Source of the DNA: a virus
Lineage: Duplodnaviria; Caudoviricetes
DNA length: 57,428 nt
Virus record (IMG/VR): IMGVR_UViG_3300046786_000092
Location: 1 to 57,428 of that record
Direction: 5' to 3' (one strand)
The position numbers and the translations under genes were made by a program. The notes beneath the pieces were generated by a model. That model was given only the letters and a program-made list of their open reading frames with translations. It was not told the DNA's origin and made no database searches. Below are positions 247-57,428 of this stretch, piece after piece (the stretch's first letter is position 1; the number at the start of each line of letters is the position of its first letter).

Positions 247-705
247 GTACCTGCACCATGTATGCTTTTGACATACAGGCGATACGAAGAAAAAGTATAG
301 GCTACCTTCCGGCTACAGGTAAAGAAATGAGCTTGCAATCGGCTGCTGAAGAGAAAAGACTCGGGAGGGGAAACTTTGAGGCCTCATTGTTTCTCTTGTC
401 CTGAATACTGGCAGTGATGACACCTTACACTGACCAGACTAGACTTGATGTGGGTACTTGTTAAAAGCTGTTGCTAAAAGGGTGGGCTAACAACAGCCAT
501 AGATGAACACATCCCTTATGGGCTTTCTAGGTGTATGTTCTAGATATTAGGGGTAGGTAGTCTGTATTTCACTATGTGATATGTACAGAGTTCTTACAAG
601 TAATGGTAGTTGTTTCTTCATAGGACTTCTACCGTTACCTCTATAGACATACATTGGGATAGGTTGTTATGATTGGCATTAAATGCTGACATACCACCTT
701 AGCTA
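247..705 (+). ncRNA. Candidate large structured non-coding RNA or leader
   Basis: Follows a promoter, has no convincing ORF, and contains at least 8 hand-found helices (see findings). Confidence 0.45.
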
Positions 706-4102: not shown

Positions 4103-4470
4103 TGGCTAAGAGAGAACTAAACGAACAGCAGAAGAAGTTCATTGAGGTGTTATTTGCTGAGGCTGGTGGTAATCCGGCTAAGGCAAGACAGCTTGCTGGC
4201 TACAGTGAAGGCTATGCCACTAAGATGATTATGGACACTCTCAAGGAAGAAGTGATTGAAGCTACACAGCTTTACATCGCCATGAATGCACCTCGTGCAG
4301 CTATGGCTGTTGTTAGTGGCATTGCTGATCCTACAGAGCTTGGCTTGAAAGAAAAACTCAATGCTGCTAAAGATTTGTTAGACAGGGCTGGTCTGGTGAA
4401 AACAGAAAAAGTTCAGGTGGAAGCACCTAACGGCATTATGATTTTGCCAGCCAAAGACAAGAGTGAGTGA
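4102..4470 (+). CDS. terS: Putative terminase small subunit
   Basis: LNEQQKKF...AGY HTH-like N-terminus, AAKDLLDRAG motif, upstream of TerL. Confidence 0.7.
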   Translation: MAKRELNEQQKKFIEVLFAEAGGNPAKARQLAGYSEGYATKMIMDTLKEEVIEATQLYIAMNAPRAAMAVVSGIADPTELGLKEKLNAAKDLLDRAGLVKTEKVQVEAPNGIMILPAKDKSE

Positions 4471-12519: not shown

Positions 12520-13014
12520 ATGGCAACTATTACTACTCTCTCTAACGCTGTAAGCGCAGGTACACACCCTAGCCGTGGTATCCGTGCTATGCCTTATGTT
12601 GTAGAAAACACAATCAACTTCGCTACCGCCACCACTGCTAAAGGTTCTGCCTTGGCTTTGAATGATGTTATCGAAGCTCTCCAGATTCCCGCACAATCTA
12701 TTGTGTTGGCTGCTGGCTTTGAGGTGATTTCTGCTATCACTGGCGATGTGACAATGAGCTTGGGCGTAACTGGTGTTACTGCTGCTGCTTATGTTTCAGC
12801 ACAAGCATTGACTGGCTCTACTGCTGTGGGTACTTATGGTACTCCTGCAACTGCTGGTTATCCAATCGTATCTCAGTCTGCTGATACATTGGACTTGTTG
12901 ATTGCTGCTTCAACTACAGCAATCTCTGCTGGTTCAGTGCGTGTCTTTGCTGTCATCGTTGACGCAACAGATCGTATTGGCCCTGCCAGTGTGAAGCGTG
13001 ATACTCTGTCTTAA
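12520..13014 (+). CDS. Putative capsid decoration/minor capsid protein
   Basis: 164 aa Ala/Thr-rich, directly after MCP and before a terminator. Confidence 0.65.
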   Translation: MATITTLSNAVSAGTHPSRGIRAMPYVVENTINFATATTAKGSALALNDVIEALQIPAQSIVLAAGFEVISAITGDVTMSLGVTGVTAAAYVSAQALTGSTAVGTYGTPATAGYPIVSQSADTLDLLIAASTTAISAGSVRVFAVIVDATDRIGPASVKRDTLS

Positions 13015-13027
13015 TTGATGGGTGTAT

Positions 13028-13062
13028 GGGGAAGCCTCCAAAAGGGGCTTCTCCTTTTATTT
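13028..13062 (+). terminator. Rho-independent terminator
   Basis: GGGGAAGCCTC-CAAAA-GGGGCTTCTCC followed by TTTTATTT. Confidence 0.85.
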
Positions 13063-15357: not shown

Positions 15358-17556
15358 TTGAGTGGATATGTAAGACAATCAGCAGCGGATATTTTGCCAA
15401 CGGCAGTTATCCGTGCGACACCTGTTAACAATGAGTTCAATGCTCTTCGTGACGCTTTCAGCACCAGCACAGGTCACAGACACGATGGCACTACTGCTGA
15501 GGGACATCTTGTTCCTCTGATCGCAGATGACAACGGCTATAACAAAGTTGTCACAGACGCTACTAACAATAGAATTAGTGTATTTGTAAATGTATCTAGT
15601 GCTGCTGTTGAGCAGCTTAGAGTACAGAATGGATCATTGACAGCAGCGTTAACTAACACTGTTGATCTAGGCACTACAGCAATTAAGTTCAAAGACTTGA
15701 ACATTGCTGGTACTGCTAACATTCCTGTAGCTAACATCACCACATCTGCCACCATTGCATCTGCTGTGGTTTCTGGTGGTACTATCAATGGTACTGTGGT
15801 TGGTAACACTACACCACAAGCAATCACTGGTACAACAATTACAGCCAACACTGGTTTTGTTGGTGGTCTTACTGGTGCTGTCACTGGTAATACAACAGGT
15901 ACACATACTGGTCCAGTGGTTGGTGCAGTTACTGGTGATGTCACTGGTAACATCACTGCATCCACAGGAACATCAACATTTAATGATGTTGTTATCAATG
16001 GTGGATTGAACATGAATGCTGGCACTGCTGCCACCATTACCAATCTTACCAGCCCCACCAATACTAACGATGCAGCCACTAAAGGCTATGTTGATACAGC
16101 AGCAGCACTGAAACTTAACCTCACTGGTGGCACAATGTCTGGTGCTATCGCTATGGGTACAAACAAGATTACAGGTCTTGGTACTCCTACGCTTAGCACT
16201 GATGCTGCTACTAAAACTTATGTTGATACATCTATCAGCAACCTAGTAGCTTCTGCTCCTGCTGCTCTAGACACATTGAATGAACTGGCAGCAGCCTTAG
16301 GCAACGATGCTAGTTTCTCAACCACAGTAACAAACTCTATTGCTGCTAAACTCCCACTTGCTGGTGGCACTATGACTGGTGCTATTGCAATGGGAACCAA
16401 TAAGATTACTGGTGTAGGTAATCCAACTCTTGCTCAAGACGCAGCTACAAAAACTTATGTTGATACGGCTGATGCTCTTAAGCTTAATCTCTCTGGTGGT
16501 ACATTGTCAGGTGCTCTGGCAATGGGAACTAATAAGATTACTGGATTGGGTACACCAACAGTAAATACTGATGCAGCTACAAAAGGTTATGTAGACACTC
16601 AAGATGCATTGAAACTGTCTTTGACAGGCGGCACAATGAGTGGTGCTATTGCAATGGGTACTAGCAAGATCACTGGAATGGGTGATCCTACTAGTGCTCA
16701 AGATGCTGCCACTAAGAACTACATTGATACATTGTTTGGCAGCACAGCCACTGCTGCTGCCTCTGCTGCAGCCGCTGCTGTTTCTGCTGCTAATGCAGCA
16801 ACCAGCGAAGGTAATGCAGCTTCTAGTGCTAGTGCTGCTTCTAGTAGTGCTAGTGCTGCCTCAGGCAGTGCTGCTGCAGCCGCTGCTAGTTATGACAGTT
16901 TTGATGATCGTTACCTTGGTCCTAAATCAAGTGTTCCTTCATTAGACAATGATGGGAATGCTCTTCTCACTGGTGCTCTGTACTTTGATACATCAGCTAA
17001 TGAGATGCGTGTGTACACAGGTTCTGTGTGGAAGGCCACAGGCTCAGCAGTCAATGGTACTTCACAGCGTTCTACTTATACAGCCACTTCAGGTCAGACA
17101 ACATTCTCTGCTGTTTACGATGTAGGTTTTGTTGATGTATACTTAAACGGATCAAAGCTTCAAAACACTGTAGACTTTACAGCCACTAGCGGTACTAACA
17201 TTGTGTTATCCGTTGGAGCTACAGTAGGGGATGTGGTAGACATTGTTGCCTACGGTGCTTTTGTTATTGCTAACACATATACACAAGCACAGGCTGATGC
17301 TAAGTTTGCACAAGTAGCAAACAACTTGTCTGACTTGTCTAGTGTTTCTGCAGCTAGAACTAATTTGGGATTGGCTACTGTAGCAGCAACTGGTGCTTAT
17401 GCTGACTTGTCAGGTAAGCCTTCAGCTAGTTCTTTCTTGCCTACACAGACAGGTAATAATGGTAAGTATTTAACTACGGATGGTTCTGCTTCTTCATGGG
17501 CAGATATCCCTCCTAGTTTTTCAAATGGCAAAGCAATGTTCTTTGCAAGTTTCTAA
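15358..17556 (+). CDS. Tail fibre protein
   Basis: TTG start after AGGAGA; repeated DAATKxYVD shaft units, Ala-rich coil, YLNGSKL..DFTATSG module. Confidence 0.85.
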   Translation: MSGYVRQSAADILPTAVIRATPVNNEFNALRDAFSTSTGHRHDGTTAEGHLVPLIADDNGYNKVVTDATNNRISVFVNVSSAAVEQLRVQNGSLTAALTNTVDLGTTAIKFKDLNIAGTANIPVANITTSATIASAVVSGGTINGTVVGNTTPQAITGTTITANTGFVGGLTGAVTGNTTGTHTGPVVGAVTGDVTGNITASTGTSTFNDVVINGGLNMNAGTAATITNLTSPTNTNDAATKGYVDTAAALKLNLTGGTMSGAIAMGTNKITGLGTPTLSTDAATKTYVDTSISNLVASAPAALDTLNELAAALGNDASFSTTVTNSIAAKLPLAGGTMTGAIAMGTNKITGVGNPTLAQDAATKTYVDTADALKLNLSGGTLSGALAMGTNKITGLGTPTVNTDAATKGYVDTQDALKLSLTGGTMSGAIAMGTSKITGMGDPTSAQDAATKNYIDTLFGSTATAAASAAAAAVSAANAATSEGNAASSASAASSSASAASGSAAAAAASYDSFDDRYLGPKSSVPSLDNDGNALLTGALYFDTSANEMRVYTGSVWKATGSAVNGTSQRSTYTATSGQTTFSAVYDVGFVDVYLNGSKLQNTVDFTATSGTNIVLSVGATVGDVVDIVAYGAFVIANTYTQAQADAKFAQVANNLSDLSSVSAARTNLGLATVAATGAYADLSGKPSASSFLPTQTGNNGKYLTTDGSASSWADIPPSFSNGKAMFFASF
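16035..16730 (+). repeat. Tandem fibre shaft repeats (~43 aa units)
   Basis: About five copies of KLxLxGGTMxGAIAMGTNKITGxGxPTxxxDAATKxY[VI]D (first copy partial). Confidence 0.85.
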
Positions 17557-35626: not shown

Positions 35627-35703
35627 TGGTATGCCTGAAGGGACTCGAACCCCTGACCTACAGCTTAGAAGGCTGTTGCTCTATCCAGTTGAGCTACAGG
35701 CAT
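35627..35703 (-). tRNA. tRNA-Arg(UCU)
   Basis: ATGCCTG acceptor stem, TAGCTCAACTGGATAGAGC D-arm, anticodon loop CTTCTAA, GGTTCGAGTCC T-arm, encoded CCA. Confidence 0.95.
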
Positions 35704-47358: not shown

Positions 47359-47955
47359 TCAGTCCCACAATGATCTGTAATATTTACCAAACAACATGAA
47401 AGCTTTCTTCATCCTAGCTTCATGTGCATCCAAACCTTCCCAGTCAACTTTAATTTTATTAATCTGTTCTTCCAGACTATCCTTCTTATCCACACCACTA
47501 TGGTCATAAAACTTGTCTGTCGATTTGTCATCAGCCAGTTCATTAAAAGCCCAGATCATTTCATCCATCACCCAGTCCCACCGCTTGAAGTGGTTGTCAT
47601 CAATGTCCCAACTGTTTTCCTTTGGCAAACATGAAGTGCTTCGCAAAGTCTTAGGCACATCCTCATCATCCACATTAGGACTGCCATGCTGTGTCGCTTT
47701 AAGTTGCTTGAGCATGGGCAAGATGATGAGTGACAATGTGTGATCCATCGCCCATGTGTCATACTTGTCTAGTTTCACAATGACAGTGCGCTTCTTTCTT
47801 TCATGCAACCATTGCAGAACATTCCCCACCCATGTCTCACTGAGCCACTCACCCCACTTGTATGCCTTGTCTTTACTAACCCCAACCTTAGTTGTTAGTT
47901 CAGCCAGTTGATATGGCCCAAGCCAATTTGGATATTTTCCTATGTAAACTTTCAT
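47359..47955 (-). CDS. Conserved hypothetical phage protein
   Basis: DTWAMDHTL..IILPML...WDWVMDEMIWAF...FGKYYRSLWD. Confidence 0.8.
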   Translation of the reverse strand: MKVYIGKYPNWLGPYQLAELTTKVGVSKDKAYKWGEWLSETWVGNVLQWLHERKKRTVIVKLDKYDTWAMDHTLSLIILPMLKQLKATQHGSPNVDDEDVPKTLRSTSCLPKENSWDIDDNHFKRWDWVMDEMIWAFNELADDKSTDKFYDHSGVDKKDSLEEQINKIKVDWEGLDAHEARMKKAFMLFGKYYRSLWD

Positions 47956-49052
47956 ACCAGTCCCCTCATTTCCTGTGTCACTGTTGCACTACGCAAAGTG
48001 TTCTTGATGTATGGTGTTAGGCTCTGCGGTGTGGCGTGGCCTGACACTGACATGATGTTTGTAATTGGTACACCAACTTCAATCATCTCTGTGATGGCTG
48101 TCCTTCGCAAGTCCTGCAACACTAGGTCACTAGGTATGTTTGCATCAGCCATGATTTGTTTAGCCACCCTCGACAGATTGAACAAGCTGTAAGGTAGTAA
48201 GCCACCCTTCCTATCAGGAACATTGGATGGTGCAATGTATTGCTGCCAACCAAACTCAGCTTGCTGTTGTCTCAGCATTGTTAGCAAGCCTTGGCTTGTC
48301 GGGATAGTCACCCTAGACCTACGCTTGCTTTGTTCCAAGTGCAACACACCCTTCTCTAGATCTATCTGATCCCATCGTAGCTTACGCATGTCACCCATAC
48401 GCTGTCCATATTCATAGCCCATCTGCACAATGAGTCCTACATTCCTCCACTTGAATGTGGAGTAGGCAGTGTTCATGAATGCTCTAACATCTTCCCTAGT
48501 CCATACAGTTCTGCGAGGTTTGTCTGCCCTTCGTAGCACCTTGCTGAATGGATTGTGTGTGATGTAGCCATGACGAATAGCAAAGTTGAATAGCAAACGA
48601 TACACTGCCAAGGTATGGTTAGCTAGGCTAACACTATGCTCAGCGTGTGTCTCATATATCTTCTGACAATGCGGAGTGACTAAGTCACCAAGTTTGCATT
48701 GATACAGAGCAACACCATTAGCTTTGCTATCCTTCCATCCCTGTAGATAGTAGAGATAGTCATGCTGTGCTTTAGCACTAAGCTTGGTGTAAGTGATGTT
48801 GTTCTTGTATGCCTTGACTAAGTCAGCCACCTTCGTCTTCTCAGAGATATCTTTAAGATATCTAAGTTCTTTACGCCAGTTGTCTAGTTTAGCATTCAGT
48901 TCTTCAGCTAAGGCAAAGGCTTTGTCCTTGTCAGTGCCAAGCACTGTGCGTTGAACAACACCAGCATCCACCACATCCTGAGGTGGGTTGTATCGCCACT
49001 TGGTTATGCCTTCGGCTGCCTTAGCCAGTGTTACATAGCGAGGCAAGTTCAT
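47952..49052 (-). CDS. int: Tyrosine recombinase/integrase
   Basis: GQRMGD, QSK, DLRRT, SGH and late Tyr (TPY) catalytic pattern; NPF motif. Confidence 0.9.
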   Translation of the reverse strand: MNLPRYVTLAKAAEGITKWRYNPPQDVVDAGVVQRTVLGTDKDKAFALAEELNAKLDNWRKELRYLKDISEKTKVADLVKAYKNNITYTKLSAKAQHDYLYYLQGWKDSKANGVALYQCKLGDLVTPHCQKIYETHAEHSVSLANHTLAVYRLLFNFAIRHGYITHNPFSKVLRRADKPRRTVWTREDVRAFMNTAYSTFKWRNVGLIVQMGYEYGQRMGDMRKLRWDQIDLEKGVLHLEQSKRRSRVTIPTSQGLLTMLRQQQAEFGWQQYIAPSNVPDRKGGLLPYSLFNLSRVAKQIMADANIPSDLVLQDLRRTAITEMIEVGVPITNIMSVSGHATPQSLTPYIKNTLRSATVTQEMRGLV

Positions 49053-54464: not shown

Positions 54465-54871
54465 GATAAGTCCCTCGTATAAATAACACCACGCTTTACC
54501 CCATCGGCAGTGGTCATTGCCTTCATTGCCACCACATCAGCCAACCCTATAGGTTGCTCAGTGGCTTTCACTACAAAGCTTGCATACTTATAAGGGTTAT
54601 AAGTAACTTGCCTACCTACCATGCTGAGGAAATCAAAGTAGTTATCAACTCTGTTGGTGCAGTAGTTAATCCAAGTGCCACTAACACCTGCATGGACATT
54701 CTTACGCTTCTCTCGAAGCACTCGCTGTCGCCCTGCCTCTGACACCAGTAGCTTGCATCCCTCAAGCACCACAGTATCACTGTAGGCAATCACTCTACCT
54801 TTGCGGTCACCTTCCAAGGCTTTAATGCTGAAGCATTTCTTGTGGAGGTTGAAGTAAACGAATACTTTCAT
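54461..54871 (-). CDS. Conserved hypothetical phage protein
   Basis: VYFNLHKKCFS...GRQRVLREKRKNVHA...VTYNPYK. Confidence 0.82.
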   Translation of the reverse strand: MKVFVYFNLHKKCFSIKALEGDRKGRVIAYSDTVVLEGCKLLVSEAGRQRVLREKRKNVHAGVSGTWINYCTNRVDNYFDFLSMVGRQVTYNPYKYASFVVKATEQPIGLADVVAMKAMTTADGVKRGVIYTRDLS

Positions 54872-54882
54872 TGTGTTTCCTT

Positions 54883-54960
54883 TCAGGAAAGCTTAGTTAA
54901 TAACCAAAACTTTACAGCCACAAATGCTGCAAAGCAGACAGTGCCTATCACATAGTCCAT
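54883..54960 (-). CDS. 25-aa hydrophobic peptide, not in ORF track
   Basis: MDYVIGTVCFAAFVAVKFWLLTKLS; starts after one repeat copy and stops on the TGA of the next. Confidence 0.55.
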   Translation of the reverse strand: MDYVIGTVCFAAFVAVKFWLLTKLS

Positions 54961-54961
54961 A

Positions 54962-55219
54962 TCATTTCCTTTCAGGAAAGAAGCTGATTGCATTGGTTGT
55001 TAGTTCAGCATCCATCATTTCAAACATGATCGATTTAGCCCTGTTCAGATACTGTCTAGCAGTCTCTGTGTCACCCAGTGCCATTAGCTCTTGAGCATCT
55101 GACATAAGCCCTGCCACCCACATCCCGCCACCTGCTAGTCGGTAGCTGATCGAGTCCTTGACGCTTTCTTTGAAAGCTTTCATGTCACAACCATACATTT
55201 GCATTTCTCTGTCTGTCAT
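54962..55219 (-). CDS. Hypothetical early protein
   Basis: MYGC...MSDAQE...ARQYLNRAK; preceded by repeat. Confidence 0.75.
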   Translation of the reverse strand: MTDREMQMYGCDMKAFKESVKDSISYRLAGGGMWVAGLMSDAQELMALGDTETARQYLNRAKSIMFEMMDAELTTNAISFFPERK

Positions 55220-55230
55220 GTTGTTTCCTT

Positions 55231-55446
55231 TCAGGAATTTGCTGCCTCAGCCATTGCAATTTCACTGTCAATAGTGACAGCATCAAACACCTGTTGCTTC
55301 GTGCCTTTGTAACCCATACCCTTAAGAATTGCATAGCAAGTCTTACCCTTGGAAGTCAGACGCATTCCCTTCATCTCCAGTTTAAGACCTTGTCTTAATG
55401 AACGGAGACGGAAAGCTTCGATTTGGAGGGGTGTAGTTAATACCAT
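55231..55446 (-). CDS. Hypothetical basic early protein
   Basis: 71 aa, GLKLEMKGMR motif; preceded by repeat. Confidence 0.75.
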   Translation of the reverse strand: MVLTTPLQIEAFRLRSLRQGLKLEMKGMRLTSKGKTCYAILKGMGYKGTKQQVFDAVTIDSEIAMAEAANS

Positions 55447-55464
55447 TTTGTTTCCTTTAGGAAA

Positions 55465-55772
55465 AGAGAAGCGACATTGCTTCTGTTAAAGCTAAGCTTT
55501 AGCCCTAACAGAAACCCACTGTCTAGCACCGACCCCAGTGCCACAATGGAGAATGTCTCTCACACATATTATCAACATGATATGTAAGCATGTCCTATGC
55601 ATTCACCCTGCATAGACTGGGCTGATCCATAGGTTGCGCTGTCACCACAACCCGACATCAGTATAAATTTTTAAAGATCAGAACGACTGAAGCTTTGCTT
55701 CACAGCAGGGCTTCACCCTATAAAGAATACTCAATGGCACTCTGAAAAGCCCCTTAGGGCTTTCCGGAAAGT
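55465..55772 (-). ncRNA. Candidate structured intergenic RNA with boxA-like site
   Basis: About 310 nt with no credible ORF; consecutive hairpins; TGATCTTTAAAAATT at 55666-55680. Confidence 0.45.
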
Positions 55773-55774
55773 CA

Positions 55775-56491
55775 TCAAACAACAAAGCCTGTTTGGTCAA
55801 GCTTCGCTTTACCTTTAGCATACAGTCCGACAATGACTTTGTCATCGAGGTGACGAACATCAGAGTTGTCTCCAGAGACAACAGGAATTCCCATGAATGT
55901 CATCGGGATATCTTTTTCCTTACGGAAAACCACCGCCATTCTCATGTTGTTAAGCAAAGCTTTTTCGACATAGGGTTGAAAACCCTCAACACCAGAATAA
56001 CTGAATGTCAGGTCATAATTCTTAGGCAAATCTTTACGATTTGCATCCTTGGTGTAATCATAGAATTGCACATCAGGAAAAGCAGCAAATATGTTTACAT
56101 ATTCAATGCCATCGGCATCGGTAAAACCTACGGTTTCCCAACGAATGTCGCTAGTACCGTTTAATCTGACCAAAGGCTGTAAGCCTTGCTTGTTAGCTTT
56201 CTTGATAAGCTTTGCAATATCAACAACAAGTTGTTGCATGAAACTGTTTCGCTCTGTAAAAAACCATACGGTTTTATTGATACGAGCCGTTTGAACTGAG
56301 CTAAAAGCTCCACGACCTGCAGTGAATAAGCAAGCTACATCACATTTGGCAGTCTTTGCCATAGAACAAGTGTTCCACTTGGTAGTTGTTGCCGGAGCTA
56401 AATAGAGAATGCCAGTTAAGAAGCCTATGGCTTCACCCTTGGTAGTTTTGGCATCAGTAGATACCGAAAGCAGAGCTTTAGACTTGAACAT
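55775..56491 (-). CDS. Gp88-like protein (Cys-triad family)
   Basis: C..A...C...CL..AGRG, RLNGTSD, FYDYTK, NYDLTFS; start moved to MFKSKAL. Confidence 0.7.
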   Translation of the reverse strand: MFKSKALLSVSTDAKTTKGEAIGFLTGILYLAPATTTKWNTCSMAKTAKCDVACLFTAGRGAFSSVQTARINKTVWFFTERNSFMQQLVVDIAKLIKKANKQGLQPLVRLNGTSDIRWETVGFTDADGIEYVNIFAAFPDVQFYDYTKDANRKDLPKNYDLTFSYSGVEGFQPYVEKALLNNMRMAVVFRKEKDIPMTFMGIPVVSGDNSDVRHLDDKVIVGLYAKGKAKLDQTGFVV

Positions 56492-56538
56492 TGTGTTTCC
56501 TTTCAGGAAGTTTGTGGCAACATTGCCGAAGAGCCTCA

Positions 56539-57024: not shown

Positions 57025-57091
57025 TTGTCCACAGTTTGTTAATATCGCAATTTGAGATGTTGTGGATAAGCTTGTTTTGGGCTGTGGATAA
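57025..57091. promoter_or_regulatory. Cluster of three DnaA boxes
   Basis: TTGTCCACA 57025-57033; TGTGGATAA 57061-57069 and 57083-57091. Confidence 0.7.
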
Positions 57092-57428
57092 CTTCATTGG
57101 ATCGATGAGGTTTTGGGGTAGATTTGCTTAAATTTTAAGCAGGATGGGATAGCATAGCTAAGGTATAAGCTTTGGTGATGGATATACCGACCTTCATTCA
57201 GGGGGGATATGCTTAAAAAATAGGCAACTTTTTTCGTTTTTTAACATTGTGAACCGATTTTGAATCAGTATTCAAAGATCTTCTAAGTTATTGAATTTAT
57301 TAAAAAATCTTTTCTTTTGAGTTGAATGCATTCTTGATCTTTGATCCACCTACATTGTGCAATGCATGTCGCAACGCATTGCCCAAGCGCAGGGCTGTAG
57401 CGGGGGCGGGCGTGGGCCACGGGGGGGT

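Follow-up and report, generated by a model that had tools for sequence, protein, structure and literature searches.

The window analysed here, that is, the whole stretch of DNA under study, is the virus record IMGVR_UViG_3300046786_000092, which is 57,428 bases long, is rated complete and comes from a phage of an aquatic group. Genes on the + strand, from 752 to 35626, encode small basic proteins, a virion structural protein, the small terminase and further large ORFs, while those on the − strand run from 57032 back to 35694 and encode an integrase, a primase/helicase, a DNA polymerase and a ribonucleotide reductase. The phage encodes both a small and a large terminase. The tyrosine integrase lies at 47952–49052 (−), and the sole tRNA gene of the window, tRNA-Arg(TCT), at 35627–35703 (−). 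The circular relative MW202701.1 has its counterpart of the G-rich end of the window directly before the homologue of window bases 1–47, an order from which it follows that 57033–57428 and 1–751 form a single divergent intergenic region of ~1.15 kb. The structured RNA described below sits in the right-hand part of this region and is directed into the virion arm. The features of this segment are as follows.

214–242, + strand: promoter with TTGACA at 214–219, a 17-nt spacer and a TG-extended −10-like AAAACT; predicted start near 249
249–705, + strand: structured RNA, ~455 nt here and ~395 nt in short-form relatives, the predicted 5′ part of the virion-arm transcript
259–277, + strand: 5′ hairpin of clade A only; at 263/273, 42 sequences have UA and 1 has CG, and at 264/272, 33 have GC and 10 GU
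299–533, + strand: core common to clades A and B, with ~70% identity between the clades; nhmmer E 2e-33 to the clade B sequences L151 and L152
326–337 with 449–462, + strand: long-range helix closing a three-way junction; 12 pairs, 98.1% paired
361–404, + strand: long variable hairpin with a self-complementary tip, GGCC at 380–383 inside a 10-nt palindrome at 377–386
408–437, + strand: hairpin with a conserved loop; at 415/429, 19 sequences have UA, 5 CG and 3 UG, and at 414/430, 20 have GC and 1 GU, with 6 unpaired
467–497, + strand: hairpin with a conserved 17-nt loop (474–490) and compensated stem pairs
553–641, + strand: variable 3′ module including an optional hairpin at 600–638; absent from 12 of 43 distinct sequences
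662–698, + strand: 3′ hairpin; two pairs change on both sides, and 11 distinct versions all fold
752–1036, + strand: gene 1 of the virion arm, 94 aa, without a family; the first ORF 3′ of the RNA

Several further elements of the genome were recorded. The window ends, 57390–57428 and 1–85, adjoin, and the block at 2–85, which is 86–98% identical in relatives, is upstream of the promoter and not part of the RNA. Three DnaA-box-like sites, of which two are perfect and the third has a single mismatch, are packed into 67 nt at 57025–57091 and are followed by an AT-rich stretch at ~57230–57310, in the same divergent intergenic region as the RNA; together they may mark an origin. Over the whole window, DnaA-box-like sites with at most one mismatch number 26, against 17.4 ± 3.7 expected. 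Inside the virion arm, just after the ORF at 12520–13014, a strong intrinsic terminator (an 11-bp stem with 7 G–C pairs, then a T run) is found at 13028–13054 (+), and the ORF at 15358–17556 contains four tandem-like copies of a 132-nt unit (16104–16736) that are 69–72% alike. A family of 21-nt direct repeats, four copies 81–100% alike, lies at the starts of early genes at 54869–56509 (−) and may represent a shared translation-start or operator element.

An earlier note, made from the letters of the window alone, had placed a TTGACA promoter ahead of a densely paired non-coding region. The motif is indeed there: TTGACA occupies 214–219 and, 14 nt further on, TGTAAAACT ends at 242. Taken together, the two elements are found at this one place in the window, with 0 copies expected, and they are invariant across 45 distinct aligned sequences. 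From its position, transcription probably starts near 249. Of 69 wider relatives, 19 have the promoter motif ahead of their gene-1 homologue, followed by leaders of 169–485 nt that are unrelated in sequence. A second promoter considered at 644–673 was set aside, as clade B, judged by eye, does not preserve it as such.

To define the distribution of the element, we searched IMG/VR with gene 1, which gave 74 loci, 47 of them with a blastn match spanning the window from 235 or before to 715 or beyond; with the window, these amount to 45 distinct sequences. The RNA is present in ~100 related phage and metagenome contigs, which form two clades that are ~70% identical over the 235-nt core. Exact core patterns retrieved 57 and 62 IMG/VR contigs and 41 metagenome contigs, many contigs being identical between the sets, and the region 249–705 is 79–94% conserved in 38 metagenome contigs. 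Within clade A the core is more conserved than the neighbouring gene: in 48 distinct sequences, the bins 320–349 and 440–529 hold 28–30 invariant columns per 30 nt, as opposed to 6–20 in gene 1, so that selection acts on the nucleotides themselves. What variation there is among the relatives is concentrated in hairpins. Clade B comprises five sequences (L151=L214, L152=L216, L220, L227 and L233), found by nhmmer and by a metagenome scan, in which the 5′ and 3′ parts outside the core differ from the window.

With R1, a covariance model of the core, the window scores 239 bits, L152 178 and L151 176, and over 88 sources the model recovered these three only, the next best match having E 0.49. No RNA homologue was detected by nhmmer in MW202701 and L068–L073, and the same program applied to 19 further leaders found L151 and L152 only. 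Two core patterns gave 0 matches in the bacterial and archaeal genome collection, despite the integrase and tRNA of the phage. Among some distant relatives, the leaders fold no better than shuffled sequences (z 0.2 to 1.2). Other leaders have features of their own: behind the same promoter motif, that of L141 is 400 nt long with z −2.9 and is unrelated in sequence; those of L134 and L002 (MW202701.1), 383–410 nt with z −2.0 and −2.4, contain repeated TGTTA-like words; and the L068-type leader is 285 nt, AT-rich, with z above 0. Some of these leaders may be further RNA elements.

No known family accounts for the region. An Rfam 15 cmscan of the whole window at gathering scores returned only the tRNA at ~35627–35703, and a scan of 150–800 at E ≤ 10 returned only four snoRNA families with E 0.89–8.5, far below their cut-offs and at chance level; this is consistent with the undescribed RNA that the earlier note had proposed. 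GOLLD, ROOL, OLE and raiA are all Rfam families, and their covariance models gave no match in these scans, nor did those of known riboswitch or ribozyme classes. The same holds for the phi29-type pRNA, an RNA of ~170 nt: there is no Rfam match, and we found no two mutually complementary loops. GOLLD and ROOL are encoded in phages or prophages, often beside tRNA clusters; the RNA here is phage-encoded, in a window whose only tRNA gene is that at 35627–35703, and its core patterns occur in 0 bacterial genomes. Our search of the article literature found no published description of this RNA.

A coding function was also considered. The sole long frame, 84–404, begins upstream of the promoter. The frame opened by ATG-258 (258–404) encodes 48 aa in the window and in 12 of 44 aligned sequences but at most 13 aa in 26 of the 44, and a 1-nt gap at 289 is present in 25 of 44. 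Clades A and B differ by 1-nt gaps inside the core, and between 424 and 546 there is no ORF of at least 20 aa on either strand. No reading frame is conserved among the relatives, and the absence of a credible ORF before 752, as the earlier note had it, stands.

The folding energy of 247–705 is −141.5 kcal/mol, compared with −122.8 ± 5.7 kcal/mol for 100 dinucleotide shuffles (z −3.27; 0 of 100 as good), whereas the reverse complement reaches z −1.19, with 13 of 100 shuffles as good. Only the + strand beats its shuffles. The variable hairpin at 361–404 is likewise more stable on the + strand in 34 of 34 versions, with a mean of −18.3 versus −9.7 kcal/mol, and 95 of the 541 pairs in these versions (17.6%) are G·U. 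The frequency of G·U pairs and the strand asymmetry bear out the suggestion that these helices belong to RNA rather than to DNA cruciforms; they fit an RNA read from the promoter and argue against a double-stranded DNA site.

Comparative evidence supports the fold. In an alignment of 44 clade A sequences (A2), a model of 171 pairs is 97.8% paired, and 15 pairs have changed on both sides, compared with 9.4 ± 1.4 in shuffles (0 of 500 reach 15) and 3–7 in slid controls; the covariation score is 0.083, against 0.060 in shuffles and 0.022–0.027 in slid controls. With clade B added (A3), two-sided changes rise to 17 versus 11.1 ± 1.6 in shuffles, and the score to 0.252 versus 0.153 and 0.067–0.094 in the controls. 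Compensatory change in the homologues therefore exceeds both controls on either alignment. Most core helices are invariant, and covariation support is confined to the pairs that vary.

The core is organized around the long-range helix 326–337/449–462, in which pair 336/450 is CG in 21 sequences, UA in 5 and UG in 1, and pair 334/452 has 22 cases of UG and 5 of UA; in the five clade B rows, 329 and 459 do not pair. The strands that join the helices, 338–360 and 438–448, together with the loop 474–490, show no variation in clade A and very little in clade B. The stem of the hairpin at 467–497 is fully compensated at three pairs (467/497, GC in 16 and AU in 11; 468/496, CG in 22 and AU in 5; 469/495, UA in 22 and CG in 5) and reads AACAAG/CTTGTT in clade B. 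The long-range pairings that RNAalifold proposes for the 3′ half conflict with this covariation-supported hairpin, and we set them aside in its favour. A short helix GATG/CATC (502–505/510–513) has an A·C mismatch plus a G·U in clade B, and compensatory change was withdrawn as support for it. The similar 5′ segments 250–255 and 332–337 can each pair with 449–454, and both pairings survive the clade B substitutions; the two competing pairings could reflect alternative conformers or coincidence. Antisense control of the small-terminase gene was considered and rejected: the complementarity between 487–508 and 4295–4316 (20/22) is at least 16/22 in only 9 of 35 loci, and the remaining loci carry another allele in which 11–15 of 22 positions are complementary to the small-terminase ORF.

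About half of the helices drawn by the earlier note survive this comparison. Five are backed by compensatory change: the 5′ hairpin 259–264/272–277, the stem CTGG-CAGTG/CACTG-A-CCAG (408–416/428–437), GCTGTTG/CAACAGC (467–473/491–497), the 600–638 helix, in the long form only (31 of 43 distinct sequences), and the 662–698 hairpin. The pairing of AGAAATGAG with CTCATT-G-TTTCT (323–331/383–394) is wrong: 383–404 pairs with 361–378, and 12 of the 17 pairs of that stem change on both sides. For three or four others the variation gives no support. The 3′ strand of TACTTGT/ACAAGTA (455–461/596–602) lies in a module absent from 12 of 43 sequences, and 457–462 pairs better with 326–331; neither GAACA/TGTTC nor the alternative pairings of CAGG at 316 are favoured by the variants; and of TCTGTA/TACAGA the inner three pairs are kept, as judged by eye, while the remaining pairs are not.

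Downstream of the core, the sequence is modular. Short forms have a different 8-bp helix in place of the module 553–641. The 3′ hairpin at 662–698 shows GC in 35 sequences versus UA in 8 at one of its two-sided changes and UA in 35 versus CG in 5 at the other, and the motif that follows it closely, 691–700, near the start codon, is conserved in both clades. On the + strand, no terminator or other 3′ end was found within 1–1500, and the RNA element may be no more than a 5′ leader. Assembled contigs from four RNA libraries, from four studies, contain short-form relatives of 267–712 at 80–95% identity, with DNA carry-over possible. Three of the four start 7–35 nt after the predicted start; the fourth, X3, extends past the promoter on its upstream side, and X1 reads on into gene 1. 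These contigs attest to the presence of the element and are not proof of transcription or of a discrete RNA species, nor do they inform on its start, its end or, their depths not being comparable, its abundance.

The most distinctive part of the RNA is the tip of the 361–404 hairpin, a new point that the earlier note had missed. The 148 loci give 34 distinct sequences of this hairpin, and all 34 have a palindromic core at the apex, although the stem beneath it covaries freely. The apex is GGCC in 24, ATGCAT or GATGCATC in 4 and TGCA in 1, and in clade B it is TGCGCA in 3 and TTGCAA in 2; switches of the tip are complementary, from GGCC to TGCA and from TGCGCA to TTGCAA. In most tips, one purine on each side of the palindrome is unable to pair with its opposite. 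Elsewhere in the genome, this palindromic form is seen in 8 of 135 comparable loops of six nt and in 0 of 112 of eight nt. Since adjacent bases in a tight loop cannot pair with one another, covariation at the tip points to pairing between two molecules. From palindrome switching of this kind, Kretsch et al. argued that OLE L9.3 and GOLLD L21a form symmetric kissing loops between molecules, contacts also seen by cryo-EM (PMC12286853); judged in the same way, the 361–404 tip shows the pattern of such a loop. The HIV-1 DIS is likewise defined by a palindrome with conserved purines on its flanks (PMC7357161). We regard the tip, from its sequence pattern, as a candidate kissing-loop dimerisation site. 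The switches on which this rests are few, perhaps four that are independent, as 24 of the 34 tips share the single form GGCC. A hairpin born of a perfect DNA palindrome has a palindromic centre by construction, and the tip in the window, with its 10-nt palindrome and 4-nt loop, is such a case; in some versions, among them this one, the palindrome reaches down into the stem, as is the case for an ordinary palindrome in DNA.

The central proposal of the earlier note, an undescribed structured RNA made from the TTGACA promoter ahead of genes for small basic proteins, is upheld by the conservation, the covariation, the strand asymmetry and the want of an Rfam match; also shown are the lack of a conserved frame, the palindrome rule at the tip and the restriction to two phage clades. 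The roles that the note suggested, packaging RNA, antiterminator or protein sponge, are conjectural. The basic proteins themselves are not specific partners, as they are also encoded downstream in phages that lack the RNA, seen both by blastn and behind the RNA-less leaders. Taking these observations together, we favour, with a probability of roughly 0.58, the reading that 249 to ~705 belongs to a new family of large phage RNA that is made at the head of the virion transcript and pairs with itself. Host RNA polymerase would start the RNA at the conserved, single-copy promoter at 214–242, and a start there would make it the leading segment of the transcript that carries the virion and packaging genes. 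The core, 299–533, would fold into the junction closed by 326–337/449–462, with its conserved single strands and three hairpins, and 361–404 would form a long stem that is free to vary but whose tip is always a self-complementary tetra- or hexanucleotide, mostly with unpaired flanking purines. Two copies of the RNA could then pair tip to tip, most likely as a symmetric kissing loop, or as an extended duplex where the palindrome is 8–10 nt long, as in the window. The RNA would act as a dimer or a larger RNA assembly during virion production, and any part that it plays in morphogenesis or regulation we can only infer.

How far beyond self-pairing this goes is less certain. We put forward tentatively that a self-assembling RNA of ~400–450 nt, either released or persistent, dimerises through the 361–404 tip and, with its invariant junction strands, builds a particle that acts in trans in virion production, as a GOLLD/ROOL-like scaffold or container or as a pRNA-like assembly or packaging cofactor. 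The lack of a detectable 3′ end and the contig joining the RNA to gene 1 weigh against a free-standing RNA of this sort, and they suit the alternative of a purely cis-acting 5′ leader of the virion operon, in which the folded RNA stays on the mRNA and controls it. It could do so by making polymerase resistant to terminators in the 35-kb arm, by letting RNase cleavage at the long hairpin determine how stable the mRNA is or by controlling when gene 1 is translated, and the palindromic tip would be incidental, or a site for a protein or RNase. The element does sit right behind a conserved promoter and ahead of the first gene, and no terminator intervenes; a leader is a constant feature of the group, as relatives without the RNA have the same promoter followed by leaders of their own; the terminator at 13028–13054 would make control of read-through useful; and the motif at 691–700, near the start codon, is kept in both clades. 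However, the modules between the end of the core at 533 and gene 1 at 752 come and go (a long form alternates with a short one, there is an insert of 20 nt, and in clade B the 3′ part is altogether different), which is hard to fit to tight coupling with a ribosome site. The leaders of close relatives are unrelated and in some cases unstructured, so the operon does not need this RNA. Together, the variable modules and the RNA-less relatives with the same promoter weigh against tight control in cis. A leader of this kind would also leave the always self-complementary tip without a role, and all the RNA-based antitermination elements known to us are far smaller than this RNA. On balance, we consider a purely cis-acting leader to be doubtful, if a serious contender.

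Other explanations fit less well. A leader that senses a ligand or protein, riboswitch-like or autoregulatory, would use the junction strands to bind a host metabolite or a small basic phage protein. Such a function would account for the invariance of 338–360, 438–448 and the loop 474–490, which resembles the pattern of a binding pocket, for the alternative pairings of 449–454 and for the basic proteins encoded just downstream, yet the RNA matches no known riboswitch class, neither a terminator nor a sequestered ribosome site was found that could serve as an expression platform, and the basic proteins are widespread in phages without the RNA; we think this unlikely. More improbable still is an element that works as DNA, whether a replication origin, a packaging site or hairpins of single-strand replication. 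The ~1.15-kb divergent intergenic region does also contain the three DnaA-box-like sites and the AT-rich stretch, and the window ends adjoin in it, but the stems covary freely without keeping half-sites, each G·U pair of the variable hairpin would be an A·C mismatch on the other strand, that hairpin is more stable as the + strand in every version, and a conserved promoter is directed into the element. Moreover, non-pairing purines flank most tips, and neither a cruciform nor a site for a dimeric protein would keep them. That the structure arose by chance, or that it hides an unrecognised small protein gene, is scarcely credible: the 48-aa frame at 258–404 in the window is broken in most relatives, the clades are offset by 1-nt gaps within the core, and the fold, the conservation and the covariation all lie above their controls, so that this explanation is refuted at the level of these tools.

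To our knowledge, only a handful of natural RNAs that form defined RNA-only assemblies have been found, and we are aware of no role established for GOLLD, ROOL or OLE. A further unrelated and smaller family with the same palindrome-switching signature would aid the study of such assemblies. This one would offer a fixed and interpretable site, behind a single-copy promoter and before virion genes; its absence from otherwise similar phages provides a natural comparison; and the ~235-nt core is tractable for cryo-EM and for mutational tests of dimerisation. If a trans-acting particle is indeed formed, a change of palindrome from one lineage to another would prevent mixing among the RNAs of relatives that infect the same cell. 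Should the element prove to be no more than a leader, it would still stand out by its size and invariance, and an invariance above that of the neighbouring gene calls for explanation.

The late-operon leaders of lambdoid phages, such as the lambda PR′ leader ('6S' RNA) and the put RNAs of HK022, provide one point of comparison. As we know these systems, they share with the window a constitutive-looking sigma-70-type promoter and a leader RNA that heads a very long, terminator-containing late operon. Unlike the terminated late leader of the lambda type, the element here is followed by no + strand terminator within 1–1500, and compared with a put RNA it is five to six times larger and is lacking from relatives that have the same promoter.

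The pRNA of phi29 resembles the present RNA in being phage-encoded and structured, and it oligomerises through covarying loop–loop pairs for virion assembly, according to PMC7357161. As described there, pRNA uses two different complementary loops to join head to tail into rings, whereas we see one self-complementary covarying loop. In addition, pRNA belongs to phages with protein-primed DNA, unlike the phage here with its small and large terminase. With the HIV-1 DIS and other retroviral kissing loops, as covered in PMC7357161, the 361–404 hairpin has in common a stem loop in a 5′ leader, a palindrome of 4–6 nt, flanking purines and a self-complementarity that is kept. Here, however, the genome is that of a DNA phage, in which no packaging of RNA explains a dimer, and the sequences are unrelated.

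The free-standing genes of GOLLD, ROOL and OLE differ from the present RNA, which is a leader between a promoter and virion genes, and unlike GOLLD and ROOL it does not lie beside tRNA genes, the sole tRNA being 35 kb away. All its occurrences fall in two clades of contigs from aquatic phages, with none in a bacterial genome, and its assembly is a prediction. At ~400–455 nt it is also shorter than GOLLD, which exceeds 800 nt (PMC12286853). The paper presents GOLLD, ROOL and OLE as large, 'ornate' RNAs, found in phages and bacteria, that assemble into homo-oligomers of RNA alone (PMC12286853). As described there, they are, like the RNA reported here, large, highly conserved, multi-helix RNAs without an assigned function, and GOLLD, too, combines one conserved with one variable part (PMC12286853). 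Finally, just as the OLE L9.3 loop switches from GGCC to GAUC or AGCU (PMC12286853), the tip of the 361–404 hairpin switches from GGCC to TGCA, ATGCAT, TGCGCA or TTGCAA.
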